Origin: Candidatus Woesearchaeota archaeon
GTDB taxonomy: Archaea > Nanobdellota > Nanobdellia > Woesearchaeales > UBA10216
Direction: 5' to 3'
Assembly (NCBI GenBank): GCA_016192915.1
Contig: JACPTF010000002.1
Coordinates: 67,530-131,529, forward strand
DNA: 64,000 nucleotides
Shown here in pieces: positions 7,787-63,512 of the stretch. The notes beneath the pieces were generated by a model. The model made no database searches and had not been told where the DNA came from. It was given only the letters and a program-made list of their open reading frames with translations. Numbering within the stretch: the first letter of the stretch is position 1; each line of letters opens with the position of its first letter. The translations under genes were made by a program, and so were the position numbers.

Positions 7787-7886
7787 ACCAAATTCGTGCT
7801 GTGCACGAATGGGCCCAGTCGCAAATCGGGCAATAGCCCGATTGCGCAGTCGGCTGCTGCCGACTTGCGGCGCAAGCCGACTTGGG
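7787..7886. repeat. Modular palindromic repeat element, copy 1, intergenic upstream of rpl3
   Basis: Consecutive hairpins: caaattcgtgc-tgt-gcacgaatgg / gggcccagtcgc / aaatcgggc-aat-agcccgatt / cagtcggc-tgctg-ccgacttg / ...gccgacttggg; shares units with copies at 15922, 34645, 56330, 58321, 63463. Confidence 0.8.
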
Positions 7887-7965
7887 AGTTGCTTTTGCTC
7901 GGATTTGCATACTGGGATTCTTTTCTTGGCCTCGTTTTTGTGGAATTGTGAAGTTGTGAAGTAAA

Positions 7966-8952
7966 ATGGCTAAGGCAGGACATCCACGTCATGGAAGCTT
8001 GCAGTTTTGGCCTCGCAAGAGGGCTGCGCGCATTTATCCCAGGGTCAGGAACCATATTGTGCCTGAGGAAGGCAAATTGTCAAGCTTTGCCGGTTACAAG
8101 GCAGGCATGACCCACCTGATGATTGTTGACAACAGGCCAAACTCGATGACCAAGGGCGAGGTTGTTGCTTTTCCTGCGACAATAATCGAGTGCCCGCCTT
8201 TGAAGGTTGCTTCTGTTCGTCTTTACTCTAATTCTCCTAACGGCTTGAGGGTTGCGAAGGAAATCTTTGGCAAGGTTGACAAGGAGCTTGGCAAAAAAAT
8301 CGTGCTTCAAAAGAAAGAGCCTGTAGTATCTGCTGAAGGTTCTGACCTGGGCCAGGTTGTTGATGTCAGGGTTAATGTTTACACCCAGCCGAAGCTTGCT
8401 GCGGTAAGCAAGAGGAAGCCTGAATTTTTTGAGCTTGCAGTCGGCGGGAAGGCAATCGCTGAAAGGTTTGCCTTGGCACAGCAGCTTCTTGGAAAGGAAG
8501 TTCCTGTCAAGGATGTTTTGAAGGAGGGCCAGCAGGTTGATGTTTTTGGCGTTACATTGGGCAAGGGCTTTCAGGGCCCTGTTAAGAGGTTTGGCGTTAC
8601 ATTAAGGCATCACAAGTCTGAAAAGACCAAGAGGGGCCCTGGCAGCCTAGGCGGCTGGAGCGCCCCAAGGATGTCGACAGTAGCCCATGCCGGGCAGATG
8701 GGCGTTCATACCCGCCTTGAGAGGAACAGGTGGATTCTGAAGCTTTCGGAAAATCCGGCTGAGCTTTCCATGTCCGGAGGCATAATCCATTATGGCAGGT
8801 TGAAATCGCATTTTATTGTTGTAAAGGGCTCGGTGCAGGGCGAGCCGAAAAGGCTTTTGAGGCTTGTTCCGTCCAGGAAGCCAAGCACAGCGCTTCCGGC
8901 GCAGGCTCCAACAATTGATTATGTAAGTGTCGTTTCAAAGCAGGGAAAATAA
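7966..8952 (+). CDS. rpl3: Ribosomal protein L3
   Basis: 328 aa, strong L3 similarity; first gene of the canonical L3-L4-L23-L2-S19-L22-S3-L29 cluster. Confidence 0.95.
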   Translation: MAKAGHPRHGSLQFWPRKRAARIYPRVRNHIVPEEGKLSSFAGYKAGMTHLMIVDNRPNSMTKGEVVAFPATIIECPPLKVASVRLYSNSPNGLRVAKEIFGKVDKELGKKIVLQKKEPVVSAEGSDLGQVVDVRVNVYTQPKLAAVSKRKPEFFELAVGGKAIAERFALAQQLLGKEVPVKDVLKEGQQVDVFGVTLGKGFQGPVKRFGVTLRHHKSEKTKRGPGSLGGWSAPRMSTVAHAGQMGVHTRLERNRWILKLSENPAELSMSGGIIHYGRLKSHFIVVKGSVQGEPKRLLRLVPSRKPSTALPAQAPTIDYVSVVSKQGK

Positions 8953-8958
8953 GTTTGG

Positions 8959-9777: not shown

Positions 9778-9792
9778 TTTTGGTGTTGTGAA

Positions 9793-10050: not shown

Positions 10051-10051
10051 A

Positions 10052-10780: not shown

Positions 10781-10793
10781 GCTGTGATTAAGA

Positions 10794-13066: not shown

Positions 13067-13074
13067 GTTACAGG

Positions 13075-13536
13075 GTGGTTATGTTGGCAAAAAAAGCAAA
13101 GGAAGGAACAGCATCGGCGCAGCCGATGCGTAGAGACAGCTTGGCTGTCTCTAAAAATGAAAGTGATGCTGTGGGAGTAGCTGCAGCCGCGCCTGCTTCG
13201 AAACCAGGCGGCAGCCAGCATGACGCAACAGGACTTGGCCTTTCTGTTCCGGATGCGCCCTGCACCGACGGAAACTGCCCGTTCCATGGCAGGCTTAGGC
13301 TGCATGGCCGGCGCCTTACCGGTGTTGTAGCATCTGCAAGGATGAGGAGAACGGCCAACATTGTGATTGAGCGGATGGCATTCGTGAAGAAATATGATAG
13401 GTATGACAGGAGAAAGTCCAAGCTGAAGGTGCATAACCCTGAGTGCATATCCGCAAAGGAAGGGGATAAGGTTGATGTTGTTGAGTGCAGGCCACTCAGC
13501 AAGACAAAGCATTTCGTGATTGTGAGGAAATTGTAA
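13075..13536 (+). CDS. rps17: Ribosomal protein S17 with about 45-aa N-terminal extension
   Basis: Core ...CTDGNCPFHGRLRLHGRRLTGVV...HNPECI...ECRPLSKTKHFVIV matches S17. No RNase P Rpp29 gene lies between sui1 and rps17. Confidence 0.85.
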   Translation: MVMLAKKAKEGTASAQPMRRDSLAVSKNESDAVGVAAAAPASKPGGSQHDATGLGLSVPDAPCTDGNCPFHGRLRLHGRRLTGVVASARMRRTANIVIERMAFVKKYDRYDRRKSKLKVHNPECISAKEGDKVDVVECRPLSKTKHFVIVRKL

Positions 13537-13537
13537 G

Positions 13538-13939: not shown

Positions 13940-13958
13940 CGTTGCAAGGTAAAGAAAA

Positions 13959-15921: not shown

Positions 15922-16019
15922 CCCAAGTCGACAGCAGTCGCAATTCCGCTCATAGCAGAATGCGCAATCGGGCTTGCCCCGATTTGCGACTGGGCCCAGT
16001 CGCCCAAAGGTGGCTTGGG
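15922..16019. repeat. Modular palindromic repeat element, copy 2, between rps14 and rps8
   Basis: cccaagtcgacagcagtcgc / aattccgc..gaatgcgc / caatcgggc-ttg-ccccgattt / perfect 18-bp palindrome gcgactgggcccagtcgc / ...ggcttggg. Confidence 0.8.
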
Positions 16020-16023: not shown

Positions 16024-16042
16024 AAAAAGGTCAATCAAAAAA
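16024..16042. repeat. Partial copy of second conserved motif (aaaaggtcaatcaaaaaa)
   Basis: Matches aaaagg(g/t)tcaatccaaaaa seen at 33698, 34742, 63513; lies directly 3' of palindromic copy 2. Confidence 0.5.
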
Positions 16043-20088: not shown

Positions 20089-20568
20089 ATGACGGTAAAC
20101 AGAAGAAAGAAGGACGTGAAGCAGCGCGGCAGCCACACACACGGCTGGGGCAGCAAGAAGAAGCACCGTGGCTCAGGCAACCGCGGCGGGAAGGGCATGG
20201 CCGGAACCGGAAAAAGGGGCGATGCGAAGAAGCCTTCAATCTGGCAGGAAGAGTATTTTGGGAAGCACGGCTTTGTCCACAAGAACGCAACGCAGGTTGA
20301 GGCAGTTAATGTGGAGTTTATTGACCAAAACATTGAAAAGCTTGTTAAGCTGAATGCTGCAAAACAGCAGGATGGTGTTTTTGTTGTCAACATTGCTGAT
20401 CTGGGCTTCGATAAGCTGCTCGGAAAGGGCAAAGTCACAAAAAAGCTCAGGGTAACAGCAGATTATGCCTCGGCAGGAGCTGTTGAGGCTGTGAAGTCTG
20501 CCGGTGGCGAAGTTGTTTTGCCATCGCAGGCAGCAACTAGAACAAAAGGCGTGAAGGTTTTGGATTGA
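20089..20568 (+). CDS. rpl15: Ribosomal protein L15
   Basis: 159 aa; Gly/Arg-rich N-terminus GSHTHGWGSKKKHRGSGNRGG. Confidence 0.9.
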   Translation: MTVNRRKKDVKQRGSHTHGWGSKKKHRGSGNRGGKGMAGTGKRGDAKKPSIWQEEYFGKHGFVHKNATQVEAVNVEFIDQNIEKLVKLNAAKQQDGVFVVNIADLGFDKLLGKGKVTKKLRVTADYASAGAVEAVKSAGGEVVLPSQAATRTKGVKVLD

Positions 20569-20589
20569 ACCTTTTCGCAAAAGGGACAA

Positions 20590-33700: not shown

Positions 33701-33731
33701 CCCTTTTCGTGGAAAAGGTTCAATCCAAAAA
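33698..33731. repeat. Second conserved motif, copy a (tgacccttttcgtggaaaaggttcaatccaaaaa) between rps11 and rpoD
   Basis: Hairpin cctttt-N5-aaaagg followed by ttcaatccaaaaa; near-identical to the copy inside the tRNA-Leu intron. Confidence 0.7.
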
Positions 33732-34644: not shown

Positions 34645-34694
34645 CACAATTCCGCCAAGGCGGAATGTGCAATCGGGTTTTCCCCGATTTGCAC
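34645..34694. repeat. Modular palindromic repeat element, copy 3, between rpoD and tRNA-Leu
   Basis: Perfect hairpin cacaattccgcc-aag-gcggaatgtg, then caatcggg-ttttc-cccgatttg; same two units as the in-frame copy inside gatA. Confidence 0.8.
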
Positions 34695-34701: not shown

Positions 34702-34841
34702 GCGGGGGTGGCAGAGCCTGGTCAAATGCGCTACCTTGAGGTGACCCTTTTTGGAACAAAAAGGTTCAATCCAAAAAAGTTGAAGGGTTGCGAACGGGTA
34801 GTCCCTTAGTGGGTGCGCGTGTTCGAATCACGTCCCCCGCA
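34702..34841 (+). tRNA. tRNA-Leu(GAG) with 54-nt intron at the canonical 37/38 position
   Basis: Manual fold: acceptor GCGGGGG/CCCCCGC (7 bp), D-arm GCAG...AUGC, anticodon stem CUACC/GGUAG with loop UUGAGG (anticodon GAG), long variable arm UCCCUUAGUGGGUGC, T-arm GCGUG-UUCGAAU-CACGU, discriminator A; CCA not encoded; intron 34742-34795. Confidence 0.8.
34742..34778 (+). repeat. Second conserved motif, copy b, inside the tRNA-Leu intron
   Basis: tgaccctttttggaacaaaaaggttcaatccaaaaaa; same hairpin stem (cctttt/aaaagg) and ttcaatccaaaaa tail as copies a and c. Confidence 0.7.
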
Positions 34842-34863
34842 CTCATAATAAAAGTGAGAAACG

Positions 34864-37856: not shown

Positions 37857-37860
37857 ATGA
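36544..37860 (+). CDS. Free-standing double-motif LAGLIDADG homing endonuclease-like protein with flanking HTH/winged-helix domains
   Basis: Two LAGLIDADG blocks (FFGLWLGDKAGGG and VFAGLFDAEGN) about 100 aa apart; N-terminal HTH-like region; AT-rich codon usage; start chosen at MDKKDTR (36544). Confidence 0.7.
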   Translation: MDKKDTRVVLKPEFQRELFTKLLKTYARMKLAKLIGISSAMLYHYKNLRVRNISLATLERGAMLLEIEMNKIEGYILNTYSFKESVQDIMKEGSAKRHQLLKDFRNEIPKISEIASNGQLDVEKWFLAYKKLIDFGARQFTKIREKGNRLLLEYTNFANGKQKAFKTVLPRKIEVDRDFLYFFGLWLGDKAGGGRIGVVNKEPKINFETSKLLQKYRQTPFFELYVDRNVEIPKTIKVDKITKKGLTGWAISVYSVNSIFKRFFEYLEANLDEFLNLMPNKAVVFAGLFDAEGNILLEDKCFRWACKDKVKIEIYKKHLFEMGLYRRFDGGNLVGYDLNKFRSLVFPHLRHPKKINACNLLFFKQGNLEDRFMRILEFIQARPGQTNREVAKALKRAKRSSQLKFLEYLDLIKMTDYPKRMFITEKGLASLSQGGKDI

Positions 37861-43891: not shown

Positions 43892-44170
43892 AGCGGGAGA
43901 CGCGCCTGAAAGTTGGTAAGGCTTGAACCTTTCGGTTTGCTCCGCCATCGCTCCTCTCCGCTACCCTCCAAGCGCAAACACTTACGATTCGTGCTGCTTC
44001 CTTCCGGACCTGACACTTTGACCATAAATGCTAACCCTGCAGGACAGAGACTCAACGCTTTAGCAAAGGCCTACAGGCCAATACCAGACCGCCCCTCAAG
44101 CTTCGGTCCACCCATGAAGCCCGTATGGTGCAACAGCGCAGGGCTGGCGCGCCAACCTAGTCTCCCGGCG
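43892..44170 (-). ncRNA. ffs: Signal recognition particle RNA (7S/SRP RNA)
   Basis: Minus strand carries GUCAGGUCCGGAAGGAAGCAGC (conserved helix-8 SRP54-binding motif) at 43994-44015. 5' GCCGGGAGAC pairs with 3' GUCUCCCGC (terminal helix 5). TATA-like aacctttaaa about 25 nt upstream; T-run downstream; no protein gene on this strand. Confidence 0.8.
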
Positions 44171-45693: not shown

Positions 45694-46518
45694 ATGGCAG
45701 ATGCTACGACTGTTGCAAAGCTAAAAGAAAAGGCAAAGCAGCTGCGAATTGAGTCAGTTAAGCTCGTTTACCAAGCTGGTTCAGGCCATCCCGGAGGCTC
45801 ACTTTCGGCAGCAGACATAATGGCCGCGCTGTTCTACCACCACATGAAGTACGACCCTAAAAGGCCCGACTGGCCTAGCAGGGACAGGTTCATACTGAGC
45901 AAAGGGCACTGCACACCACTTCTTTACTCTGTTTTTGCTGATGTCGGATACTTCCCCAAAGAAGAACTTGCAACATACAGGAGGCTCGGAAGGCTTACTG
46001 GACACCCAAACCCGAAGTTGCCTGGGGTTGAGATAGCAACAGGCTCGCTTGGGCAGGGGCTCTCTGTCGGGCACGGCATGGCCCTCGCCGGAAAGCTTGA
46101 CAAAAAAGACTTCTACGTTTACGTGCTGCTCGGCGATGGCGAACTGAACGAGGGGCAGGTCTGGGAGGCGGCAATGAGCGCTGCGCAATACAAATCTGAC
46201 CATTTGATTGCGCTAGTTGACAACAATAAAGTTGCGCAGGATAATTTAACTGCAAACCTGAAGAATATTGAGCCTGTTGACAAAAAGTTCGAGGCATTCG
46301 GCTGGCAGACATTCAGGATAAACGGTCATGACATTGCAGCAATAATTGACGCGTTGGCGGCAGCAAAGAAAATACGAGGTAAGCCTGTCATAATAGTTGC
46401 CGACACGATAAAAGGAAAAGGCGTTTCTTACATGGAAGGCAAGCCGGACTGGCACGGCAAGGCGCCAAACGAGGAATTGTTCAGGAAGGCAATGGAAGAA
46501 CTGGAAAAAGGTGGCTAA
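45694..46518 (+). CDS. tkt: Transketolase, N-terminal (TPP-binding) subunit
   Basis: 274 aa; GSGHPGGSLS and GDGELNEG TPP motifs; split transketolase typical of archaea. Confidence 0.9.
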   Translation: MADATTVAKLKEKAKQLRIESVKLVYQAGSGHPGGSLSAADIMAALFYHHMKYDPKRPDWPSRDRFILSKGHCTPLLYSVFADVGYFPKEELATYRRLGRLTGHPNPKLPGVEIATGSLGQGLSVGHGMALAGKLDKKDFYVYVLLGDGELNEGQVWEAAMSAAQYKSDHLIALVDNNKVAQDNLTANLKNIEPVDKKFEAFGWQTFRINGHDIAAIIDALAAAKKIRGKPVIIVADTIKGKGVSYMEGKPDWHGKAPNEELFRKAMEELEKGG

Positions 46519-53214: not shown

Positions 53215-54534
53215 CTAAAATTCAAGGATACCCTTGGCTTCTGCAACAAGGCTGGGGCTGCTGCCGCCGTGCCAGGTTGACCTTGGGCGGACTCTCATCG
53301 GATAAAGGCGCTCATTGGTATCGTCAAAAAGGAGAGCTGCGCCTTTTACCCTCGGCAGGTCGTTGAGCGACTTGTCAAGGCCCTCGCGCATGTAGCTCTG
53401 CATCAGGGCGCCAAGGGCGTCAACGTCAATCTTTGCAGTAACACGATGGGAGATAACGATATCCGATTGTGTCATGACGTCGGTATGAATCTGGCCTGGC
53501 TGCTGCGATGCAAGAACCAGGGAAATGCCGGGCTGCCTGCCCTCCCTGAGGACAGTGATTAGGGAATTCGACGCCGGCGTGATGCCCTGCTTGGGAAGGA
53601 ATTCGTGGGCCTCATCGAGAAAAAGCCAAATCAACGGGACTTCCTTCTTCTCGCCTGCAAGCTTCCTAGAGAAGGATGTTGCCTGTTTTATTGAGGCCAT
53701 TTCCTCAGCCTTCCTTATGAGCATCCTTTCGTTAAACAGCTTCTTTGAAACAAGGCCAATGACCAATGCACGGATGTTGTTCTTGCCCCCAGAGACGGCA
53801 TAAGGGCTTATGTCAAGTATTGTAATCTGCCCGCCAACAGCCAGGTCGCTGATTAGCGTTGATTTCTCGCTGAAAAGCCCCCAATCTTCAGCTGAGAGGA
53901 ACATGTTTTCAACAGCCGCCCTTGTCTCATTGCTTGTCCTGTCATCCTTCCTTACCTCAGCCACGATGTCGTTTAATGAAAAATCCGCCTGCTGCTTCCT
54001 GAGCCCGGAGACAACCCTTCCGATAAGAGTGCCAAACTCGCTTGTGATGTCAACCTCGAAAATGCCGCACCAGTCGCCAATGGTGAGCTCTGCCGGGTTG
54101 ATTGAGAAAGGCAGGTCAACCGGTATGCCGCGGTCCTTGAACTCCTGGTAGCTGCCCAGGGGCACGTAAACCCGCGCGTTAAAGTGCTGGTAAGGAATCT
54201 GCCACTCCCTGAGAAGGGCTTCGTCCTTCCTGTTCTCGTACTTGGTTGTCCAGAAAATTCCCATGGTGTCAAAAACTACGAGGCTGAGGTTTTTTGTGAG
54301 CTCTGGCTCAAGGGACATCATGCCTTCAGCCATTGCCATAATAGAATAGCTTTTCCCGCTTCCCCTCTTGCCAAAAACTGAAACAACATGGCTTCTCAGA
54401 ACGTCCATGTAAATTCCTGTTGACAGCGAGGTTGTCTGGCCCATCTTGACGTAATGCTTGCCAATAAGGAAGGTGCCCTTATCGCCAAAAGCCCTCCTGT
54501 CTTCCTCATCCCTTCCGACAATTATCTCGTACAC
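53215..54534 (-). CDS. HerA/FtsK-like P-loop ATPase (DUF87-type)
   Basis: 439 aa; Walker A FGKRGSGKSY; Walker B LFLDEAHEF; no adjacent NurA-like nuclease. Confidence 0.65.
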   Translation of the reverse strand: MYEIIVGRDEEDRRAFGDKGTFLIGKHYVKMGQTTSLSTGIYMDVLRSHVVSVFGKRGSGKSYSIMAMAEGMMSLEPELTKNLSLVVFDTMGIFWTTKYENRKDEALLREWQIPYQHFNARVYVPLGSYQEFKDRGIPVDLPFSINPAELTIGDWCGIFEVDITSEFGTLIGRVVSGLRKQQADFSLNDIVAEVRKDDRTSNETRAAVENMFLSAEDWGLFSEKSTLISDLAVGGQITILDISPYAVSGGKNNIRALVIGLVSKKLFNERMLIRKAEEMASIKQATSFSRKLAGEKKEVPLIWLFLDEAHEFLPKQGITPASNSLITVLREGRQPGISLVLASQQPGQIHTDVMTQSDIVISHRVTAKIDVDALGALMQSYMREGLDKSLNDLPRVKGAALLFDDTNERLYPMRVRPRSTWHGGSSPSLVAEAKGILEF

Positions 54535-54607
54535 GCACTAACCTCTTTTGCAGCTATTCCAGCTGTTCTGCTGTTGTGGCAATAAATACTTTGCGCTAGT
54601 GGGGTGC

Positions 54608-54744
54608 TTTCAAGTTAATTGGCAAAGCCGACTTTGGTGCTGCGCACTTCCTTTCCCTCCCCTACGCTTAGCGTGGGGAGAGGAAAGCAACCCAAATGCA
54701 GTTTGGGCAAAGTCGGCAACAAAAGACACTTAACTTGACATTAT
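54608..54744. mobile_element. MITE-like element: about 135 bp with terminal inverted repeats, flanked by imperfect 17-bp direct repeats
   Basis: Ends tcaagttaa ... ttaacttga; internal long hairpin with perfect 13-bp arms cctttccctcccc / ggggagaggaaag around tacgcttagcgt. Flanks cgctagtggggtgcttt (54592-54608) and cgctagtgggaagcttt (54752-54768). Shares gccgactttgg / caaagtcggc with the palindromic family. Confidence 0.65.
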
Positions 54745-54790
54745 CCGCTAGTGGGAAGCTTTATAAAATCGCTGTGGCTTCACAGGAGAA

Positions 54791-55390
54791 ATGGCAAAAA
54801 GCATTGGGGAAGGGAACGGCATCAGCGAAGAGTTCGCAAGTCTCAAAAAGGAGATAGAAACTATTGACTCTAAAAGAGAAGCTCTCATCGCCAGCACAAG
54901 GGAAATACTGAAGGCATCCAAAGGAGCGATCTATTCCTTGCAACGAGGCGATAACAAGGCGGCGGAAAAGGCGCTTGCTGAACTGAAGCCAAAGATTGCC
55001 GCGCTAAAGCCTTATTCTGAAGATGCAAACTATGCGAGCGTCACAAAGCCTCCAATCCAGGAATATGTTGAGGCAGCCTGCTTCAGCGAATTCATCAACA
55101 ATGGAAAGATACTGCCACGGGAAAAGCTTGGAGTTTCGGCGGAAAACTATATCGCCGGGCTTTGCGACCTGTCAGGCGAGATTGTGCGCAAGGCAGTCAA
55201 CGCCGCCATAAACGATGATGCCAAGACGGTAATTTCGGGAAAAAAATTCATTGAAAACCTCTACTATGGCCTGATGCAATTTGACTTCAGGAATGGGGAC
55301 TTAAGGAGGAAGTTTGACGGCCTGAAATACGACCTGAAGAAGATGGAAGACCTGCTTCTCAGCCTGAAGCTGCAGGGGAAGGTGAAGTGA
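54791..55390 (+). CDS. Translin-family protein
   Basis: C-terminal FDGLKYDLKKMEDLLLSLKLQG parallels human translin YDGLKYDVKKVEEVVYDLSIRG; YIAGLCDLSGE matches the translin YVCGLADLTGE block. Confidence 0.8.
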   Translation: MAKSIGEGNGISEEFASLKKEIETIDSKREALIASTREILKASKGAIYSLQRGDNKAAEKALAELKPKIAALKPYSEDANYASVTKPPIQEYVEAACFSEFINNGKILPREKLGVSAENYIAGLCDLSGEIVRKAVNAAINDDAKTVISGKKFIENLYYGLMQFDFRNGDLRRKFDGLKYDLKKMEDLLLSLKLQGKVK

Positions 55391-55393
55391 AAA

Positions 55394-55624
55394 ATGGTCA
55401 TAGACCATGAAAGGGTAAGGAAACAGGCAAAAGCCGTTATGGATGAGTTTGTGAAGGCACTTGATAAAATTGGAGGGGTTTCTGGAGAGGTTGGCATTGA
55501 AAGGGATGAGCAAACAAGGGCTGCGAAGGCAACAAAGCAGGACAGCGGCTTCAGGGGGAGGATGCTTGGAAACGCCCCTAAAAAGGACAGCTCACACATA
55601 ATTGCCGAGAAGAAAAGCTGGTAA
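55394..55624 (+). CDS. gatC: Putative Asp-tRNA(Asn)/Glu-tRNA(Gln) amidotransferase subunit C
   Basis: 76-aa ORF ending 3 nt before gatA; sequence similarity to GatC is weak, call rests mainly on position. Confidence 0.5.
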   Translation: MVIDHERVRKQAKAVMDEFVKALDKIGGVSGEVGIERDEQTRAAKATKQDSGFRGRMLGNAPKKDSSHIIAEKKSW

Positions 55625-55626
55625 AA

Positions 55627-57054
55627 ATGACCTATTCAACAGAAGAAAAAAAATCACTCATTAAGAAAGGCAAAATAACGGCATCGAAAAACATCAAAGG
55701 ATTTCTAAACGCCGTAAGGAAGAAAAATGGCAGCGTGAACGCCATATTGCACGTTAATGAAAATGCTGTTGCCGAGGCAGAGGCTGCTGACAGGAAGATA
55801 AAGGCCGGGAAAGCCGGAAGGCTGGCAGGGCTAGCAATAGTGGTGAAGTCAAACATTTCTGTAACAGGGTTGCCTGTTACTTGCGCTTCGAAAACGCTGG
55901 AAAATTATTACGGGACTTTTGACGCTGACGTTATCGCTAAGATAAAGGCCGAGGACGGCATAATAATCGGGATGGCAAACATGGACGAGTTCGCCTGCGG
56001 AAGCTCAGGAGAGACCTCGGCATTTGGGGCAACACACAACCCTGCGGCCCCGGGAAGAATACCGGGAGGGACAAGCTCTGGCTCAGCTGCGGCTGTCGCG
56101 GCAGGATTCTGCGACCTGGCCCTTGGCTCAGACACAGGCGGCTCAATCAGGAATCCAGCCTCGCATTGCGGCGTTGTAGGCATAAAGCCAAGCTACGGAA
56201 GGGTTTCAAGGTATGGACTGGTTGACATGACAATGAGCTTTGACCAGATAGGGCCTCTCAGCAACGATGCTTACGGGGCAGCACTGCTTATGGAGGTAAT
56301 CGCCGGGAAAAGCGAGAACGACGGCACAACACAATTCCGCGATGAGCGGAATGTGCAATCGGGCAATGCCCGATTTGCAACTGCAAATAAAGTTCCGGAT
56401 TACCTGAAGCTTCTGCAGAATGGCGTGAAGGGGATAAAAATAGGCATGAGCCCGGAATTTGAGGAGATGTGCAGTGACAAAAGGATATATGGGCTGATAG
56501 AAGACGCCGCGCATAAATTTGCTGCTGCAACGAAAAGCACGATAAAACAAATAAAGTTGCCTTATGTTGACATGGCAATACAGGCCTACTACCCGATAGT
56601 TTACGTCGAGTTCTTCTCGGGAACCAGGAAATTTGACGGGAGGAAGTACGGCAAGAAAATAGAAGACAGCTGCGGTGAAGAGGTGCTGAGAAGGATACTT
56701 GGCGGCAGGGAAATATCAAAAGCTGAGCACCACGGCACTTATTACAGAAAGGCGCTGATGGCAAAGAAGCGGATAGCTGAAGGCTTTGAAAGCGCATTCA
56801 AGGATGTTGACATCATAATATCGCCAACAACGCCCATGCTGCCGCACAGGATTGGAACGAAAATAAGTGACCCGATGGTAATGTATGCTTATGACGCTTA
56901 TACCATCCCGGTGAATTTGGCGGGGGTTTGCGCGGGGGTTGTGCCTGCAGGGAAAATAGATGGTATACCTGTTGGGCTGCAGACTATGACGCCTGCTTTC
57001 AGGGAGGAATTGCTGCTTCAGACACTTGCCGGAATAGAAAAACAATCTTTATAA
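55627..57054 (+). CDS. gatA: Asp-tRNA(Asn)/Glu-tRNA(Gln) amidotransferase subunit A, carrying an in-frame 57-nt repeat insertion
   Basis: Amidase signature GGSSGGSAAAVA; 475 aa. Segment TQFRDERNVQSGNARFATA (56329-56385) is encoded by a palindromic repeat copy. Confidence 0.9.
   Translation: MTYSTEEKKSLIKKGKITASKNIKGFLNAVRKKNGSVNAILHVNENAVAEAEAADRKIKAGKAGRLAGLAIVVKSNISVTGLPVTCASKTLENYYGTFDADVIAKIKAEDGIIIGMANMDEFACGSSGETSAFGATHNPAAPGRIPGGTSSGSAAAVAAGFCDLALGSDTGGSIRNPASHCGVVGIKPSYGRVSRYGLVDMTMSFDQIGPLSNDAYGAALLMEVIAGKSENDGTTQFRDERNVQSGNARFATANKVPDYLKLLQNGVKGIKIGMSPEFEEMCSDKRIYGLIEDAAHKFAAATKSTIKQIKLPYVDMAIQAYYPIVYVEFFSGTRKFDGRKYGKKIEDSCGEEVLRRILGGREISKAEHHGTYYRKALMAKKRIAEGFESAFKDVDIIISPTTPMLPHRIGTKISDPMVMYAYDAYTIPVNLAGVCAGVVPAGKIDGIPVGLQTMTPAFREELLLQTLAGIEKQSL
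56330..56380. repeat. Modular palindromic repeat element, copy 5, in frame inside gatA
   Basis: cacaattccgc-gatga-gcggaatgtg + caatcgggc-aat-gcccgatttg; near-identical to intergenic copy 3 (34645). Confidence 0.85.
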
Positions 57055-57078
57055 ACGCTTTCTTGCTCTCTGGAATGC

Positions 57079-58875
57079 ATGTTAAGAACCAATACCTGCG
57101 GGGAGCTGACTGCCAAAGACATAGGCAGGATTGTTACGCTGGCCGGCTGGTGCCATTCCAGAAGGGACCACGGCGGGGTAATCTTTATTGACTTGCGTGA
57201 CAGGTATGGATTAACGCAGGTAGTTCTTGACCCAAGCCACAGCAAAAAAGTCCACAAGCTGGGCGAGCACATAGGGAGGGAGTGGGTCATTTCTGCAAAA
57301 GGCAAGGTGAGGAACAGGCCTAAGGACATGGTCAATCCTAAAATGGCCACGGGTGAAATAGAGGTCCTTGTTGATGAGCTTCAGATAATAACGAAAGCCG
57401 CTGTTCCGCCAATTGAAGTGGATGACAGGGTGGAAGCCTCTGAAGATATCAGGATGAAGTACAAGTACCTTGACCTGAGAAGGCCAATGATGCAGCAACG
57501 GCTGATTTTCAGGCATAAAGCGGCTGAAGCAGTGAGGGAGTACTTCAGCAAAAACAGCTTTATTGAGATTGAAACGCCTCTCCTCGTCAGGTCAACCCCT
57601 GAGGGGGCAAGGGACTATGTCGTTCCAAGCCGGGTTAGTCCTGGAAAGTTCTATGCCCTGCCGCAAAGCCCGCAGCTGTATAAACAGATTCTGATGATAG
57701 CTGGGTTCGATAAGTATTTTCAGCTTGCAAAATGCCTCAGGGATGAGGACTTAAGAGCAGACAGGCAGCCTGAGCACACCCAGATTGACTTTGAGATAAG
57801 CTTCGTTGACGAGAAAGACGTAATGCTGTTCGTTGAGGGGCTCTACAAGCACCTGTTCAAGGAAATGCTGGAGATTGACTTAAAAACGCCGTTCCAAGTG
57901 CTGACGCACGCCGAAACAATGGCAAAATATGGCACTGACAAGCCAGACTTAAGGTTCGGCATGGAACTTACTGATGTAACAGAGATTGTGAGAAAATCAG
58001 ACTTCAAAACATTTGCATCTGAGGAGCAAGTCAAATGCGTGGTTGCTGAAAAAGACTTCAGCAGAAACGAGATAGACGAGCTAATAGGATGGGCAAAGGA
58101 AAATGGCGCAAAAGGGCTTGCGTGGATGAAAGCAACCGACAAAGGGTTGGAGTCATCAATCGTAAAGTTCTTCAGCACAGAAATACAGAAGCAGCTGCTT
58201 CTGAAAACAAAGGCAAAGAAGGGCTCGGTTCTGTTCTTCGTTGCAGACAGCAAGAAAAAGGTTGCGGAAGTCCTTGGAAAACTAAGGGTTGAGCTGGGGC
58301 AAAGGTTTGGGCTGATACCCAAATCGGCCGCTACCGATTGGGCCCAGTCGCAGCAGCGACTTGGGAATGACAAGGAATTCAAGTTCTGCTGGGTAGTTGC
58401 TTTTCCTTTGTTTGAATGGAATGCTGACGTGAATAGGTGGGAGGCAGCGCACCACATGTTCACATCGCCAAAGCCTGAGCACGCAGATTTGCTTGAGAAA
58501 GACCCGGGTAAGGTTCTCGGAAACCTTTACGACCTCGTGCTCAACGGAACAGAGTTGGGTTCTGGCTCAATACGCATTAACAGCCCAGATCTGCAGGAAA
58601 GGGTGATGAAGGTTGTTGGCTTAAGCCATGAAGCTGCCCAGGCAAAGTTTGGGTTTCTTCTTGAGGCATACAAGTTTGGAGCTCCTGTTCATGGTGGGAT
58701 GGGGATAGGATTTGACAGGACAGTAGCGCTCATGCAGGGGCTGCACGACATAAGGGAGGTTATTGCTTTTCCGAAAAACAAAAAGGCTGAGAGTCCGATG
58801 GACGGCTCGCCATCAGAAGTTGAAGAGAGGCAGCTTAAGGAGCTGCACATCAAGAGTGATGTGGTTGGAAAATGA
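57079..58875 (+). CDS. aspS: Aspartate--tRNA ligase, bacterial type (with GAD insertion domain), carrying an in-frame repeat insertion
   Basis: 598 aa; class II motifs; bacterial-type length. Adjacent gatCA suggests the non-discriminating enzyme. Segment KSAATDWAQSQQRLGN is encoded by a repeat copy. Confidence 0.9.
   Translation: MLRTNTCGELTAKDIGRIVTLAGWCHSRRDHGGVIFIDLRDRYGLTQVVLDPSHSKKVHKLGEHIGREWVISAKGKVRNRPKDMVNPKMATGEIEVLVDELQIITKAAVPPIEVDDRVEASEDIRMKYKYLDLRRPMMQQRLIFRHKAAEAVREYFSKNSFIEIETPLLVRSTPEGARDYVVPSRVSPGKFYALPQSPQLYKQILMIAGFDKYFQLAKCLRDEDLRADRQPEHTQIDFEISFVDEKDVMLFVEGLYKHLFKEMLEIDLKTPFQVLTHAETMAKYGTDKPDLRFGMELTDVTEIVRKSDFKTFASEEQVKCVVAEKDFSRNEIDELIGWAKENGAKGLAWMKATDKGLESSIVKFFSTEIQKQLLLKTKAKKGSVLFFVADSKKKVAEVLGKLRVELGQRFGLIPKSAATDWAQSQQRLGNDKEFKFCWVVAFPLFEWNADVNRWEAAHHMFTSPKPEHADLLEKDPGKVLGNLYDLVLNGTELGSGSIRINSPDLQERVMKVVGLSHEAAQAKFGFLLEAYKFGAPVHGGMGIGFDRTVALMQGLHDIREVIAFPKNKKAESPMDGSPSEVEERQLKELHIKSDVVGK
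58321..58365. repeat. Modular palindromic repeat element, copy 6, in frame inside aspS
   Basis: ccgattgggcccagtcgc-agcag-cgacttggg; same units as intergenic copies 1, 2 and 7. Confidence 0.85.
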
Positions 58876-59093
58876 ACCGGCTTCTGCGTTTATTTCTCTA
58901 CCTTTGTGTTAGTGTGTTGATTTTTGTTTTGATATTAATACCTGTCGGCTTTTTAGTGCAAACAGTTTCCGGCACCTGTGAATTTTCGGAAGGCACATGC
59001 GGTTCACTTCGATTATCGATCGATCTGTTAATTTTAATCGCTGTTGTGGCTGCTTCACAACTAATAACCTACAAAATTTTTACAAAATTTTGA
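58872..59093 (+). CDS. Small membrane protein (hypothetical)
   Basis: 73 aa; two hydrophobic segments; 4-nt overlap with the aspS stop. Confidence 0.4.
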   Translation: MNRLLRLFLYLCVSVLIFVLILIPVGFLVQTVSGTCEFSEGTCGSLRLSIDLLILIAVVAASQLITYKIFTKF

Positions 59094-59102
59094 GGCTGCC
59101 GA

Positions 59103-59645
59103 ATGTTTGTTCTGGTAACCAGCAACGAAAGGAAGCTTGAGGAATTCAGAGAGCTGCTGAAAGGGCTAAACTTTGAAGTTCTGAAAACAGAAAAGCCTGA
59201 GCTTAGGTCTGATGACATCTGCGAGGTTGCAAAAACAGCTGCTAAAGCTATTTGCGGGAAAATACAGAAGCCGGTTGTTGTTGAGGACTCAGGACTGTTC
59301 ATTGATGCCTTAAAGGGCTTTCCTGGAACGTGCACTGCTTACGCCTTCAAAAGGATAGGCAACAGAGGCATTCTGGAGTTAATGAAAGGAGTAAAAAACA
59401 GGCGGTGCTGGTACAAATCTGCTGTCGGCTACTGCGAGCCGGGAAAAGAGCCGGCATGCTTCCTTGGCAGCGAGGAAGGAAGAATTTCTGAGAGGGAAAA
59501 AGGCAAGGGCGGCTGGGGGCAGGACCCGATATTCGTACCGAAAGGAAAAAGCAGGACTTACGGCGAACTGAGGAAGAAGGGTGATGTTAATTTGTTTAGG
59601 AAGGAAGCGATTGAGAAGTTGAAAAGTTTTTTGGAGACAAAATGA
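59103..59645 (+). CDS. Non-canonical purine NTP pyrophosphatase (Ham1/RdgB/ITPase family)
   Basis: VLVTSNERKLEEF...VVEDSGLFIDALKGFPG motifs. Confidence 0.8.
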   Translation: MFVLVTSNERKLEEFRELLKGLNFEVLKTEKPELRSDDICEVAKTAAKAICGKIQKPVVVEDSGLFIDALKGFPGTCTAYAFKRIGNRGILELMKGVKNRRCWYKSAVGYCEPGKEPACFLGSEEGRISEREKGKGGWGQDPIFVPKGKSRTYGELRKKGDVNLFRKEAIEKLKSFLETK

Positions 59646-60316
59646 GGACGGTAGATAGCCTTGTAAAGCTCGCAATGATGAATTTTCTAAAAGCTAGTGC
59701 TGTTTTCTATGGCGTAAAAATTTACGGTCTTGAAAATGTCGAAACTGAAAAAGGGAGTGTTTTTGGAGTCAAACACGCCAATAGTGTTGACCTTCCACTC
59801 ATGGTTCACGTGCTTCAAGGCAAAGCAACAATATTTGCATCCAGTCATATTTTCAAGAATCCGGCAGCAAACTATATGCTCACAGTGGCTGGCGCCGTAC
59901 CCCTCTATACAGCTCCAGATTATAAAGTGTTGAGATTAAACGGGGAATTGACCTCTCAGGCAGAATTAATAAAAAATGGATTGGAAGCACAAAAATGGCT
60001 GGCTTATGCACCAGAGGGAAACGTAGGCATGGGCTTTGTACGAGAGGATATTTACCCACAAATGCTAATAAAAGCAGCCAGCCACGGTCATCACACTTAC
60101 CTTGTTGGCATAAAGTTTAGGCATACTTACCACCCGTGGTTTTCTTTCGTGCGATGGCCATGGCAAAACGGAATTGAAGTTAGGATTGAGGAATACAATG
60201 CTGCTGGTAAACCACTTGGACTGGTTAAGGAAGAGGTAAGGGAATATCTAGCAAGGCTTAGCGGGCTTGATTGTTTAGAACAAAGAGTTAAACAACTAGC
60301 CCCCAGAAATAACTGA
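59642..60316 (+). CDS. PlsC/LPLAT-like acyltransferase (HX4D motif)
   Basis: VKHANSVDLPL contains H-x4-D; followed by the conserved ...YAPEGN.. block (EGxR-like). Confidence 0.5.
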   Translation: MRTVDSLVKLAMMNFLKASAVFYGVKIYGLENVETEKGSVFGVKHANSVDLPLMVHVLQGKATIFASSHIFKNPAANYMLTVAGAVPLYTAPDYKVLRLNGELTSQAELIKNGLEAQKWLAYAPEGNVGMGFVREDIYPQMLIKAASHGHHTYLVGIKFRHTYHPWFSFVRWPWQNGIEVRIEEYNAAGKPLGLVKEEVREYLARLSGLDCLEQRVKQLAPRNN

Positions 60317-60532
60317 CAGGATTTTAACCTCGTCTTTATCGCTCAGTGTGTCGTCTTCCGTAACAAGGCCGTTATTTTTCGCAACCAAGACTGCCGCAGG
60401 ATTGAGATTAAGCTTTTTCAGCAAAGCAGAGACCTTGCCGCTGAACTTAAGCTTCTTCCTTGCGTTTTCGCGCTCAATAAAGATTTCCATGTTTTTGAAA
60501 AAGACAGTCCTGCTTAATAAGTTTTTGAACAA
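60296..60532 (-). CDS. MoaD/ThiS/SAMP-like ubiquitin-fold protein ending in Gly-Gly
   Basis: 78 aa; C-terminus ...KILSVISGG; beta-grasp-like pattern. Confidence 0.6.
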   Translation of the reverse strand: MFKNLLSRTVFFKNMEIFIERENARKKLKFSGKVSALLKKLNLNPAAVLVAKNNGLVTEDDTLSDKDEVKILSVISGG

Positions 60533-60736
60533 TTTCCAAAAATTTCCGTAAAAACAGGCATTCCTGCATTTATAAATACTAATATGGACTGGTTGCTGGC
60601 GGTTTTAGGCAAAGCTTTGCGAATTTTAGCTCTGCAGGCTCTGGAAGGGCTTTTTTCCATGGGAAAGTATGGGGTTATGCTTACTTGAAAGGTCTTGTTT
60701 AAAAATAGCAGTGTTTATAAATAAGAACAGATAAGT

Positions 60737-60748
60737 GCTTATAAATAG
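60737..60748 (+). promoter_or_regulatory. TATA box (gcttataaatag) for tbp; consistent with a leaderless transcript
   Basis: Centre about 29 nt upstream of the ATG at 60771; a second TATA-like gtttataaata lies at 60713-60723. Confidence 0.4.
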
Positions 60749-60770
60749 AGTTTAGGGGGTGTTTAACAGA

Positions 60771-61328
60771 ATGGGCAAGAGAGAAATCACTGTAGTGAAC
60801 ATAGTAGTAAGCACTTCTTTGGGTCATGACATTCCTCTTGAGAAGATGAATGCCATGCTTTCAAACACAGAGTACAACCCTGAGCAGTTCCCGGGGCTGG
60901 TTATAAGGATAAAGGAGCCGAAAACATCTGCCCTTGTCTTCAGCAGCGGAAAGGTTGTCTGCACAGGCGCAAGGTCTATGGATAAGGTTGAGGAGTCAAT
61001 AAAGAAGATTATCAAGAGCCTTGAGAAGATTGGCATAAAGATAACGATAAAGCCAGAAATCAAGATTCAGAACATTGTCGCTTCAGGAACGGTGGGAATG
61101 GACCTTAACCTGAACACGCTAGCAATGAAGCTCAGCAACACAGAGTACGAGCCGGAGCAGTTCCCGGGGCTTGTTTACAAGCTCATAGACGGGCCTGTAA
61201 AGGCGACATTCCTCCTTTTCAGCAACGGAAAGGTTGTCTGCACAGGAACAAAGAGCGAAGAGGAAGTCAACAAATCACTTGACAAGCTTATTGACAACCT
61301 GAAGAAGGCTTCGGGGAAGAAAGGATAA
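60771..61328 (+). CDS. tbp: TATA-box binding protein
   Basis: Two direct TBP repeats (NTEYNPEQFPGLVIRIKEPK... and NTEYEPEQFPGLVYKLIDGP...); start moved to the ATG at 60771. Confidence 0.9.
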   Translation: MGKREITVVNIVVSTSLGHDIPLEKMNAMLSNTEYNPEQFPGLVIRIKEPKTSALVFSSGKVVCTGARSMDKVEESIKKIIKSLEKIGIKITIKPEIKIQNIVASGTVGMDLNLNTLAMKLSNTEYEPEQFPGLVYKLIDGPVKATFLLFSNGKVVCTGTKSEEEVNKSLDKLIDNLKKASGKKG

Positions 61329-61404
61329 ATTTTGCAGGGCTTAAGCACTCTTACTCTAAAACATGTTGCGGCCATGCTGAAGCAGGAATCGGCAGGCGTC
61401 AAAA

Positions 61405-63462
61405 ATGGGCGAAAAGGACATAACCGCGAAAGGCATCATGATGCTCGAAGCCACAGAGCAGATAGAGCGGTTCAAGGAATTCTTTGAAGAAATTGAAAAG
61501 AAAAACATGCTTGAAGCCGTATCATCGGGCAGGGCTTCGATAACAACTGATTTTGCAAAGCTTTCGGCGTTTGACCCAAAACTGGCTGTGGACTTGCTCG
61601 ACTATCCTGAAGAGGTAATCAAAGCCGCTGAACTGTCGATAAGGGAGATAGAGCTTCCAACAGATGTAAACAAGCTCAGGGTCAGGGTAAAAAACCTTCC
61701 GGAATCCCAGAAGCTGATGATAAGGGAGATAAGAAGCAACCACCTGGGAAGGCTCCTGGTTCTGGACGGGATTGTGAGAAGGAAATCAGATGTGAGGCCG
61801 CAAGTCATAAAAACCGAGTTTGAATGCCCTAACTGCGGGAGGATAATATCACTCCTGCAGACAGAAGCCACGTTCAAAGAGCCGAGGAGTTGCAGCTGCG
61901 GCAGAAAGGGAAACTTCAGGCTCATGGGTAAGGAGATGGTTGACGCTCAAAGCATGGTGCTGGAAGAAAACCCGGAGATGCTTGAAGGAGGAGACCAGCC
62001 AAAGCGAATAGGGGTTTTCCTTAAAGAGGACCTTGTAAGCCCGATAAGCGAGAAAAGGACTAACCCCGGAAACAGGGTAAGGGTAGTCGGAATACTGAAA
62101 GACGTGCCAGTGATAAAGCAGGGAAGCCGCTCAACAAACTACGAACTTTTAATCGATACGAATTACATAGAAACGATAGATGAGGATTTTTATGATATAA
62201 ACATTTCAAAAGAGGACGAAGAGCGCATAATGGCCCTGGCAAAAGACCCAAGAGTGTATGACAAGCTGGTTGCTGCCATTGCGCCGTCAATTTACGGCTA
62301 TGAAAAAGTGAAGGAGTCCCTCATGCTGCAGCTTATGGGTGGTGTGCAGAAAAAGCGTTCCGACGGGATTGTCTCAAGAGGGGATATCCACGTTTTGCTG
62401 GTGGGCGACCCTGGATCAGGAAAAAGCCAGCTCCTGAAAAGGGTAAGCGTCATAGCGCCGAAAGGAAGATACGTAAGCGGAGGGGGCGTAAGCGGGGCAG
62501 GCATAACGGCTGCAGTAGTCAAAGATGAAATCCTTGGGGGCTGGAGCCTTGAGGCGGGAGCACTGGTCCTTGCAAACAACGGCGTTTGCTCAATAGATGA
62601 GATGGACAAGATGAGCGAGGAGGACACAGGAGCCATGCACGAGGCGCTGGAACAGCAGAGTGTTAGTATTGCGAAGGCAAACATACAGGCAACGCTCATG
62701 GCCCGCACAACAGTCCTTGCCGCAGCAAACCCGAAATTCGGAAGGTTTGACCCGTACGGAAACATAGCAGAGCAGATAAACCTCCCGCCTGCGCTTATAA
62801 ACAGATTCGACTTGATATTCACAATAAAAGACATGCCACAGAAAGAAAATGATGAAAAGATAGCAGGCCACATACTGCAGCTGCACCAAACCCCGGACGT
62901 GCACGAGCCTGAGATTTCAACAGAATTCCTGAAAAAGTACATTTCGTATGCGAGGCAGAAAGTAAGGCCGTTTCTGGAGGATAATGCAATAGATGAAATA
63001 AAAGAATTCTACGTGCAGCTTAGAAACAGGGCAGTCAGCGACGAAAGGGCGGCAAGGGCAATACCAATATCAGCAAGGCAGCTTGAAGCCCTGGTCAGGA
63101 TGAGCGAGGCATCGGCAAAGGTAAGGCTGTCAGACAAGGTAACAAGGGAAGATGCTAAGAGGGCAATTGAGCTGTTGATGTACTGCCTGATGGAAGTAGG
63201 AAGGGAGAAAGAAACGGGCCAGATCGACATAGATAGGATAGCCACTGGCATACCGGCATCGCAAAGAGAGAAGATGTTCCTGATAAAGCAAATACTGGAC
63301 GACCTTGAAAAAGAACTAGGGAAAACTATCCCTGTAGAGGACGTTGCAAGGATTGCTGTTGAAAAAGGCCTAAGCAAGGCAGAAGTGGATGAAATAATAG
63401 AAAGGCTCAAGAGAATAGGCGATGTTTACGAGCCAAGATACGGCTTCCTGTCCAGAGTGTGA
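61405..63462 (+). CDS. mcm: Minichromosome maintenance (MCM) replicative helicase
   Basis: 685 aa; zinc finger CPNCG...CSCG; Walker A GDPGSGKSQ; Walker B IDEMDKM; arginine finger SARQ; no intein. Confidence 0.95.
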   Translation: MGEKDITAKGIMMLEATEQIERFKEFFEEIEKKNMLEAVSSGRASITTDFAKLSAFDPKLAVDLLDYPEEVIKAAELSIREIELPTDVNKLRVRVKNLPESQKLMIREIRSNHLGRLLVLDGIVRRKSDVRPQVIKTEFECPNCGRIISLLQTEATFKEPRSCSCGRKGNFRLMGKEMVDAQSMVLEENPEMLEGGDQPKRIGVFLKEDLVSPISEKRTNPGNRVRVVGILKDVPVIKQGSRSTNYELLIDTNYIETIDEDFYDINISKEDEERIMALAKDPRVYDKLVAAIAPSIYGYEKVKESLMLQLMGGVQKKRSDGIVSRGDIHVLLVGDPGSGKSQLLKRVSVIAPKGRYVSGGGVSGAGITAAVVKDEILGGWSLEAGALVLANNGVCSIDEMDKMSEEDTGAMHEALEQQSVSIAKANIQATLMARTTVLAAANPKFGRFDPYGNIAEQINLPPALINRFDLIFTIKDMPQKENDEKIAGHILQLHQTPDVHEPEISTEFLKKYISYARQKVRPFLEDNAIDEIKEFYVQLRNRAVSDERAARAIPISARQLEALVRMSEASAKVRLSDKVTREDAKRAIELLMYCLMEVGREKETGQIDIDRIATGIPASQREKMFLIKQILDDLEKELGKTIPVEDVARIAVEKGLSKAEVDEIIERLKRIGDVYEPRYGFLSRV

Positions 63463-63512
63463 CCCCCAATTCGCTTTGGCGAATGGGCCCAGTCGACGCA
63501 AGTCAACTTGGG
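63463..63512. repeat. Modular palindromic repeat element, copy 7, directly after the mcm stop
   Basis: ccaattcgc-tttg-gcgaatgg + gcccagtcgacgcaagtcaacttggg. Confidence 0.75.

Follow-up and report, generated by a model that had tools for sequence, protein, structure and literature searches.

A family of 48-nucleotide double-hairpin repeats in Candidatus Woesearchaeota, probably mobile and translated when intragenic

The 64,000-nucleotide stretch of contig JACPTF010000002.1 analyzed here (positions 67,530 to 131,529; hereafter the window) belongs to a metagenome-assembled genome (MAG) of Candidatus Woesearchaeota, a groundwater DPANN archaeon, and carries six dispersed copies of a short palindromic repeat, designated A to F (Table 1). 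Comparison of these copies with their relatives elsewhere resolves the repeat into a 48-nt doublet of two adjacent hairpins, and we consider it probable (roughly 70%) that the doublets are non-autonomous, protein-free, structure-dependent mobile DNA of Candidatus Woesearchaeota that is translated when it lies within a gene, in the manner of the Rickettsia palindromic elements (RPE). The initial annotation of the window had described a multi-copy family of small palindromic elements that behave like MITEs (miniature transposable elements with inverted repeats) or repetitive extragenic palindromic (REP) sequences, and such a family is real and stands far above shuffled sequence. All six of the short copies that it listed were recovered at, or a few bases from, where it had placed them. 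Its count of seven or more copies holds for these six, while the remaining one, at 54608-54744, is an unrelated insertion and a likely extra doublet lies in the S17 gene.

All copies fit a single plan. The mobile unit of 48 nt comprises two hairpins of ~24 nt, the first with one extrahelical A in its 5' arm and the second with one extrahelical T in its 3' arm, and therefore the reverse complement of a doublet has the same shape as the doublet itself. Type I doublets are laid out as xy-CAATTCCGC-loop-GCGGAATG-y'x'-CAATCGGGC-loop-GCCCGATTTG-xy, and type II doublets as CCCA(A)-stem-loop-stem-TGGG/CCCA-stem-loop-stem-(T)TGGG, where the slash marks the junction of the two hairpins. A probable third type joins the hairpin GCATCGGC..GCCGATGC to a second one (TAGAGACAGC..GCTGTCTCTA). 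Copies conserve either CA(A)..(T)TG or CCCA..TGGG at their termini. The element ends are 5'-CAATTCC and CCGATTTG-3', of which only ~4-5 nt (CAA(A)T) are related as an inverted repeat, and the palindromy lies within each hairpin; neither terminal inverted repeats of at least ~10 bp across the ends nor a long target duplication was seen in the doublets. What had been annotated as interchangeable hairpin modules resolves into this one architecture together with nesting, and the perfect palindrome proposed as a module of its own (gcgactgggcccagtcgc) is really the junction at which the 3' arm of one hairpin meets the 5' arm of the next in a CCCA..TGGG/CCCA..TTGGG doublet. Among the window copies, doublet C is 47 nt long, being one base short in hairpin 1, and lies within the loop of a GATAAGGG/CCCTTAT hairpin, and the type II doublets E and F read CCCAAATCGG..CCGATTGGG/CCCAGTCGC..GCGACTTGGG and CCCAATTCGC..GCGAATGGG/CCCAGTCGAC..GTCAACTTGGG, respectively. 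The census of type II is a manual list; a strict regular expression (CCCA..TGGGCCCA..TGGG) recovered three copies only. Hairpins 1 and 2 are adjacent in all copies found except L027 (related loci outside the window are referred to by L numbers). At L027 (~2519-2585) and L020 (~5412-5460) orthologous proteins carry a doublet at the same site, and L027 has an extra hairpin of 18 nt, or six codons, between the two hairpins, so that smaller single-hairpin insertions in multiples of three also occur.

At 7788 and 15922, where the copies reach ~100 nt, a type II doublet harbors a 48-nt doublet in one of its hairpins, just 5' of the 3' arm of that hairpin. In copy A, read on the minus strand, the host doublet CCCA..TGGG/CCCA..TTGG is made up of 7788-7821 and 7870-7886, and the nested 48-nt doublet at 7822-7869 (CG-CAAGTCGGC..GCCGACTG-CG-CAATCGGGC..GCCCGATTTG) sits just 5' of the 3' arm CGACTGGG. 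The host doublet of copy B is CCCAAGTCG..CGACTGGG/CCCAGTCGCC..GGTGGCTTGGG, and the loop of its first hairpin holds a nested type I doublet (15939-15986). Like nesting is seen in L007, L029, L032 and L103, and the GCATCGGC..GCCGATGC hairpin of the third type hosts nested type I doublets in L023, L024, L063, L071 and L078. Moreover, L105 is nested in itself, such that removal of 48 nt from the loop of hairpin 2 leaves a doublet identical to L017a, with the second doublet placed at the CG of that loop. Composites also recur whole: one unit of ~90 nt, which encodes S(N/D)KG(S/T)..QFREERNAQSGSPRFAPLSTL, is shared by PurD/PurN, Elp3 and a membrane protein, and the composite of copy A is found again at non-orthologous sites in L005 and L017. 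Treatment of these two loci as orthologues of copy A was rejected on the basis that no rpl3 lies nearby; they are separate copies of one composite.

How far does this similarity exceed chance? The string GGGCCCAGTCG occurs four times in the window against 0.01 expected, always within the annotated copies, and AATTCCGC three times against 0.7 expected. A repeat finder clustered 15941, 34646 and 56332 as one family (D4) and 15983 and 63476 as another (D19). Hairpins of at least nine pairs, with one bulge allowed, number 21 in the window compared with 1-11 in 20 shuffles, and 12 of the 21 are members of the 48-nt doublet family; bulged CA..TG modules number 10 compared with 0-3 in shuffles, and directly adjacent hairpin pairs 7 compared with 0-2 in 30 shuffles. 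Folded as single-stranded DNA, every copy has a z-score between -3.1 and -7.4. A palindrome at 46183-46213 in the transketolase gene resembles native coding sequence and was not counted.

The family was followed outside the window by a search for the exact hairpin 2 pattern (GCAATCGGG-N5-CCCGATTTGC) in one genome per prokaryotic species, which returned 29 loci, 24 from ~10 archaeal MAG species and five bacterial. Eight of the archaeal species with doublets are named Woesearchaeota, one is an Iainarchaeum and one is labelled Methanosarcinales yet is syntenic with the window. The five bacterial matches lack the rest of the element and are presumed to be chance, for which ~4 are expected. A metagenome scan with the 17-nt junction of hairpin 1 and hairpin 2 yielded 22 more complete doublets, all on contigs of 45-55% GC; ~80 of its 106 matches lie on high-GC bacterial contigs and were set aside as chance. 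Among viral contigs the hairpin 2 pattern has no match, and six matches to hairpin 1 are all without hairpin 2, hence chance. The sequence CCCAGTCGCAGCAGCGACTTGGG is common to the window, L029, L057 and L104. The initial annotation had named two outcomes as telling against a family, namely the lack of further copies and similarity no better than in shuffles; copies outside the window were found and the motifs exceed shuffles. Rfam 15 at gathering score has no family that matches any repeat in the window, an uninformative protein-database search with an artificial 49-residue query for the encoded peptide gave one candidate only, and no description of such elements for Woesearchaeota or other DPANN archaea was found in the searchable literature.

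Hairpin 1 is 99.1% paired when 27 type I copies, 26 of them distinct, are compared. Double changes occur at four of its nine pairs (20 cells), and none of 500 shuffles reaches the observed covariation. Its variants run from TTCCGC/GCGGAA to TTCAGC/GCTGAA, TTCGGC/GCCGAA and GTCGGC/GCCGAC, and in slid registers pairing falls to 20-42%. Conservation of hairpin 2 is uninformative because the loci were found by its sequence. Type II hairpins have many different, complementary stems between constant CCCA and TGGG ends, and a compensatory change from A-T to C-G separates two copies of one composite that share a contig (L007 and L029). The compensatory changes that the initial annotation had proposed to look for are present, and the hairpins stay paired. 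These comparisons argue that structure, more than sequence, is the conserved feature.

Two copies in the window lie within conserved protein genes, and both have empty counterparts in relatives. Doublet D adds 16 residues to GatA (QFRDERNVQSGNARFA, residues 236-251; QFRDERNVQSGNAR across the insert). Alignment with the Thermotoga GatA structure 2gi3 leaves a 17-residue gap exactly over the repeat, and the insert is missing in all 13 of the nearest GatA homologues (67-89% identical). An AlphaFold model of GatA has a mean predicted local distance difference test score (pLDDT) of 86.6 and a predicted template modelling score of 0.90, and its sole long segment with pLDDT below 50 is residues 237-252, which correspond to the insert; this model used an alignment of 68 sequences, and one from 14 sequences gave a pLDDT of 36 and was discarded. 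Doublet E likewise adds 16 residues to the aspartyl-tRNA synthetase AspRS (~PKSAATDWAQSQQRLG), where alignment with solved structures leaves a gap of ~14 residues over the repeat and the protein is 598 residues long as opposed to 582-584 in relatives. Three related, syntenic MAGs (L033, L034 and L035) have clean 48-nt gaps at both the GatA and AspRS repeats. Moreover, doublet F is missing from the syntenic L035, and the L033 intergenic sequence differs there; the L007 site orthologous to doublet C is without the doublet and holds only a degenerate hairpin resembling hairpin 2. In the opposite direction, the uL13 N-terminal extension of L007 holds a composite repeat at a place where the window has only an 18-nt spacer. 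Such pairs of filled and empty sites between relatives of ~80% DNA identity show insertion directly.

The GatA region invites two observations of its own. A bacterial-type AspRS with a GAD domain is encoded directly downstream of GatA (55627-58875 for the pair), an arrangement that suggests use of the indirect pathway to Asn/Gln-tRNA and a synthetase that is atypical or was acquired horizontally. L034 (CAZBFZ010000045.1), from the MAG labelled 'Methanosarcinales', is syntenic with window positions 54042-60862 and 98.6% identical to L033 overall, and the label looks wrong; the N-terminal ~230 residues of its GatA are identical to the window protein, reflecting either recombination between lineages or a co-assembly chimera.

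Coding behavior in the wider family follows the same pattern. An open reading frame (ORF) of at least 200 codons runs without interruption across 21 of the 39 distinct type I doublets. In seven Pfam-confirmed hosts the insert falls within or between domains (PurD/PurN, Elp3, SufC, RtcA, Rrp4, a PMT_2 glycosyltransferase and uL13), and other inserts lie in inter-domain linkers or terminal tails. All six combinations of frame and orientation are used in ORFs of at least 200 codons (QFRxERNAQSG.., RNSAxGGMRNRA.., AIPRxAECAIGR.., QIGxxPIAHSA.., RKSGxARLRIP.. and ANRxxPDCAxR..), and therefore the conserved entity is the DNA and not a peptide. Every one of the 21 ORF-embedded copies is exactly 48 nt long, compared with 12 of the 18 others, the other six being 46-47 nt (Fisher p = 0.006). 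No stop triplet occurs in any of six frames of the type I consensus or of the stems of types I and II; ~4% of shuffles of the type I consensus are likewise free of stops. Taken together, these features indicate that intragenic copies are probably translated and are retained only at sites where 16 added residues do no harm.

A further regularity concerns the bases that flank each doublet, positions on which the search pattern placed no constraint. In 38 of 39 copies the same dinucleotide precedes CAATT and follows TTTG (CG in 27, CA in 7, CT in 3 and TA in 1), and the dinucleotide between the hairpins is the reverse complement of the flank in 36 of 39. Empty sites carry the flank dinucleotide once, as seen in GatA (..AA-CA-AC..), in the CG of the L105 host loop and in the CCCAGTCGCAGCAG-CG-ACTTGGG hairpin (CCCAGTCGCAGCAG^CGACTTGGG). 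This could be a 2-nt target duplication, if further spread is limited to copies in which the hairpins are closed by the flanks; otherwise, pairing or overlap with the central dinucleotide would select the target. Since the flank co-varies with the center, it may be part of the element or a required overlap and not a duplication.

How would an element of this size move? Under the model that we favor, the folded hairpins, and not a long sequence, would be recognized, and the likely agent is a transposase or recombinase that is specific for structured single-strand DNA and is supplied in trans; the candidates would be HUH/Y1 enzymes like those of IS200/IS605 and REP systems, or a recombinase dependent on a matched overlap of 2 nt. 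Such recognition is proposed because insertion is a precise 48 nt, the extrahelical base is fixed, the stem sequence is free, terminal repeats are lacking and doublets frequently land in hairpins. New copies have the same dinucleotide (CG, CA or CT) on both sides, and doublets often land in the hairpins of older copies, which gives longer composites. As the unit is a multiple of three with stop-free stems, coding insertions would add 16 residues and the gene would not be destroyed; copies would survive where the protein tolerates a loop, a linker or a terminal tail. If intergenic copies influence where transcripts end or how stable they are, this would be a secondary consequence.

Several points weigh against this model. 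The presence and absence of doublets is compared between species-level relatives (~80% DNA identity), and so does not capture movement within a population. Some copies are orthologous or belong to the same composite, by which the covariation and dinucleotide counts are inflated. Translation of the inserts is argued from statistics of length and stop codons. No autonomous parent element was found; hairpins 1 and 2 are never spaced widely enough for a gene. No transposase, RAYT, Y1 or serine recombinase is present among the ~50 window proteins by Pfam, and a crude tblastn of 0.93 Mb of related loci, in fragments of 8 kb or less, with IS608 TnpA and gamma-delta resolvase queries found nothing, which is a weak negative. 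Neither the window nor the ~0.9 Mb from relatives, the latter in a weak search, yielded a candidate for the cognate transposase or HUH nuclease that the initial annotation had proposed to look for.

One alternative hypothesis is that the hairpins serve primarily as RNA signals under host selection, for instance to terminate, process or stabilize transcripts. All copies fold stably, and bacterial REP sequences and bacterial interspersed mosaic elements are generally known to stabilize upstream mRNA. The initial annotation had stressed positions beside stop codons, and this is borne out for copies B and F, which begin just past the rps14 and MCM stops; the third gene that it named, rpoD, ends well upstream of doublet C, which lies closer to the intron-containing tRNA-Leu that follows (Table 1). 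Its placement of copy A upstream of rpl3 was correct. However, the copies at 56330-56380 and 58321-58365 are not near gene ends; both are inside ORFs and in frame. ORFs of at least 200 codons hold two of the six window copies and 21 of the 39 type I doublets, in both orientations and all frames, and most copies in related genomes are likewise intragenic; no T-run follows the hairpins, no Rfam family matches, and the same essential genes are filled in one species and empty in close relatives. Because most copies are intragenic, occur in both orientations, are polymorphic among relatives and lack a T-run, a primary RNA role, including the transcript-end role suggested at first, is improbable; a secondary RNA effect of the intergenic copies is possible.

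A second hypothesis treats the intragenic copies as RNA introns, removed before translation by, for example, the archaeal splicing endonuclease acting on a bulge-helix-bulge. Archaea splice a few mRNAs and many tRNAs, the window itself has an intron-containing tRNA-Leu, and the inserts are strongly structured. The structure, however, is that of two independent hairpins with 1-nt bulges, not an end-to-end helix with two 3-nt bulges 4 bp apart. Intragenic copies are strictly 48 nt without in-frame stops, as opposed to the 46-47 nt tolerated outside long ORFs, and their stems are stop-free in six frames, a constraint to which an intron would not be subject. Splicing is for these reasons a very unlikely explanation.

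Could the hairpins instead have formed where they stand, time and again, through template switching or snap-back synthesis as the DNA is replicated? Perfect hairpins can originate de novo from template-switch mutations (PMC10710096), and CCCA..TGGG hairpins combine great diversity of stem sequence with perfect complementarity. This would leave unexplained that unrelated loci and species share stems, bulge positions, the 48-nt length and even loops (L017a and the L105 host; CCCAGTCGCAGCAGCGACTTGGG), and that whole ~90-nt composites recur in unrelated genes (PurD, Elp3 and the membrane protein), and we give local origin only a slim chance. Finally, it is scarcely credible that the similarity reflects a conserved peptide motif, as the nucleotides are conserved while the peptides differ across six frames and intergenic copies exist, or an artefact of assembly or binning: MAG assemblies can be chimeric and L034 seems a mosaic of the window and L033 lineages, but the identical insert-bearing GatA gene occurs in three independent Logan read-set assemblies and in an NCBI Woesearchaeota MAG, and an assembly artefact is therefore excluded.

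If the doublets are mobile DNA, to which known system are they closest? RPE are palindromic, non-autonomous repeats of 105-150 bp (PMC2229807) that occur between genes and in frame within conserved genes, which they do not destroy because they stay open in the host frame, and where they are thought to lie on the protein surface (PMC2229807, PMC10969869), and coding palindromes are also known from nematomorph mitochondria (PMC6649704). Like RPE, the doublets lie in conserved protein genes with the frame kept (GatA and AspRS; PurD, Elp3, SufC, RtcA, Rrp4 and uL13). Unlike them, RPE form a single long stem-loop, are confined to Rickettsia and encode one conserved peptide per family, and there is no sequence similarity between the two. 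The coding palindromes of Wolbachia are placed beside RPE among the closest systems, and MJRE2 of Methanocaldococcus jannaschii (Suyama et al. 2005) is reportedly to be grouped with RPE-like coding palindromes.

In anatomy, the doublets resemble REP sequences and REPINs, which are associated with RAYT (TnpA_REP), in that they are short, imperfect palindromes with stem asymmetry, are arranged as doublets, conserve structure above sequence, lack terminal inverted repeats and are non-autonomous. REP sequences are extragenic, carry a 5' GTAG and are paired as inverted copies of one hairpin, whereas the doublets are mostly intragenic, lack GTAG and combine two differing hairpins, and no RAYT was found. 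Palindrome-associated transposable elements (PATEs) derived from IS200/IS605 likewise have two distinct imperfect hairpins at their ends, no terminal inverted repeats and no long target duplication. In IS608, guide sequences pair with the cleavage site, and the match between flank and center in the doublets resembles this. The known elements of this kind run to hundreds of bases and enter the DNA 3' of a target of 4-5 nt, in contrast to the 48 nt and 2-nt matched flank of the doublets, for which no Y1 enzyme was detected in a weak search. Classical MITEs share with the doublets their small size, non-coding nature, multiple copies and presence or absence between relatives, and differ from them in having terminal inverted repeats and a target-site duplication of defined length, for which the doublets offer nothing beyond 2 nt. 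An analogy can also be drawn with integron attC sites, in which a folded single strand with extrahelical bases is recognized and the stem is free to vary, although attC sites are 57-141 nt long and lie beside integron cassettes and are not dispersed in genes. The doublets thus behave as RPE, are closer in anatomy to REP sequences or IS200/IS605 ends, and are a member of none of these; their distinctive features are the minimal 48-nt double hairpin, the six-frame codability, the nesting and the three-way dinucleotide rule.

Table 1 Copies of the double-hairpin repeat in the window, their host genes and one unrelated insertion. Scores z are for folding as single-stranded DNA.
Feature	Position	Strand	Context and support
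Composite copy A	7788-7886	-	Intergenic, with an unknown ORF on one side and rpl3 on the other; z -7.4 (DNA fold -37.3 kcal/mol)
Probable third-type doublet	13108-13153	+	S17 N-terminal extension, upstream of the Pfam S17 domain; z -6.3
Composite copy B	15922-16019	+	6 nt past rps14 stop, upstream of rps8; families D4 and D19; z -3.1
Doublet C, type I (CA-type)	34645-34693	+	Intergenic, 55 nt past rpoD stop, 8 nt before tRNA-Leu(GAG); z -5.2
MITE-like insertion, ~144 nt	54605-54748		Between HerA-like gene and translin; z -7.6
GatA gene (amidase family), host of doublet D	55627-57054	+	Pfam Amidase 5.8e-119; PDB GatA matches
Doublet D, type I (CA-type)	56330-56379	+	Exact 48-nt insertion in GatA
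AspRS gene, bacterial-type with GAD domain, host of doublet E	57079-58875	+	Pfam tRNA-synt_2, GAD, tRNA_anti-codon; PDB AspRS E 1e-177
Doublet E, type II	58318-58365	+	48-nt in-frame insertion in bacterial-type AspRS; z -4.2
Doublet F, type II	63465-63512	+	48 nt, 2 nt past MCM stop; z -3.1

Pfam and ORF maps place these copies in an archaeal housekeeping region with A-type ATPase subunits, a large ribosomal protein operon and SecY, together with the rpoD operon, LeuRS, PheRS, topoisomerase, GatA, AspRS, TBP and MCM. In the S17 gene, the domain begins at ORF residue 83, downstream of the probable third-type doublet. The candidate copy at 54608-54744 was rejected as a member of the family and is an ordinary MITE-like element, though its inner hairpin CCCAAATGCAGTTTGGG has family-like ends; it has 8-bp terminal inverted repeats (CAAGTTAA/TTAACTTG) and a 9-bp duplication (GCTAGTGGG) at 54596-54604 and 54749-54757, is missing in the syntenic L033 and L034, and is a single copy in the window and the related loci searched. 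The A-type ATPase B subunit (2321-4774, plus strand; 817 residues) contains an intein with a LAGLIDADG homing endonuclease (Pfam Intein_splicing and LAGLIDADG_3). The archaeal signal recognition particle RNA at 43894-44167 (minus strand; RF01857, 126.7 bits) is the only gathering-score match of the window to Rfam. An ORF of 457 residues at 36487-37860 (plus strand), without a Pfam match, lies in the stretch of lowest GC in the window (40% compared with ~48%) and may be foreign DNA.

The tRNA-Leu(GAG) at ~34702-34848 (plus strand) was recognized by eye; ARAGORN found no tRNA in the window, and Rfam at gathering score also missed this one. Its intron of ~55 nt after the anticodon loop contains an 18-nt motif, AAAGGKTCAATCMAAAAA, which occurs five times in the window against 0.01 expected (16025-16042, 20557-20574 on the minus strand, 33714-33731, 34760-34777 and 63522-63539). 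From the motif it is 37-62 nt downstream to rps8, rpoD, the gene that follows MCM and the 3' portion of tRNA-Leu, and a CCTTTT..AAAAGG hairpin often comes directly before it. The L007 orthologue of the tRNA-Leu has a longer intron with the motif in both orientations, and its inverse (TTTTTGATTGACC) is present in related loci. The motif may be a lineage-specific promoter/terminator cassette or another repeat.

In-frame 'selfish' palindromes in essential genes are textbook knowledge for Rickettsia and rare elsewhere. More tentatively, and less likely than not, the doublets could represent a previously undescribed minimal class of element, in which the target would be set by base pairing or a 2-nt overlap between it and the central dinucleotide under the action of a structure-specific DPANN single-strand DNA recombinase, and which would have evolved to be 'codable', could thereby spread into essential genes where genomes are gene-dense, and would seed loops and N-terminal tails in proteins such as S17 and uL13. 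If the doublets are mobile DNA as favored above, so small and regular a family may define the minimum requirement of hairpin-dependent transposition, and the rule that relates flank to central dinucleotide would be simple enough for testing in vitro. Natural pairs of filled and empty genes would then be at hand for studying how enzymes tolerate loops of 16 residues, and lineage-specific insertions in marker proteins, including aminoacyl-tRNA synthetases, GatA and ribosomal proteins, could disturb alignments, phylogenies and the assembly of Woesearchaeota MAGs.

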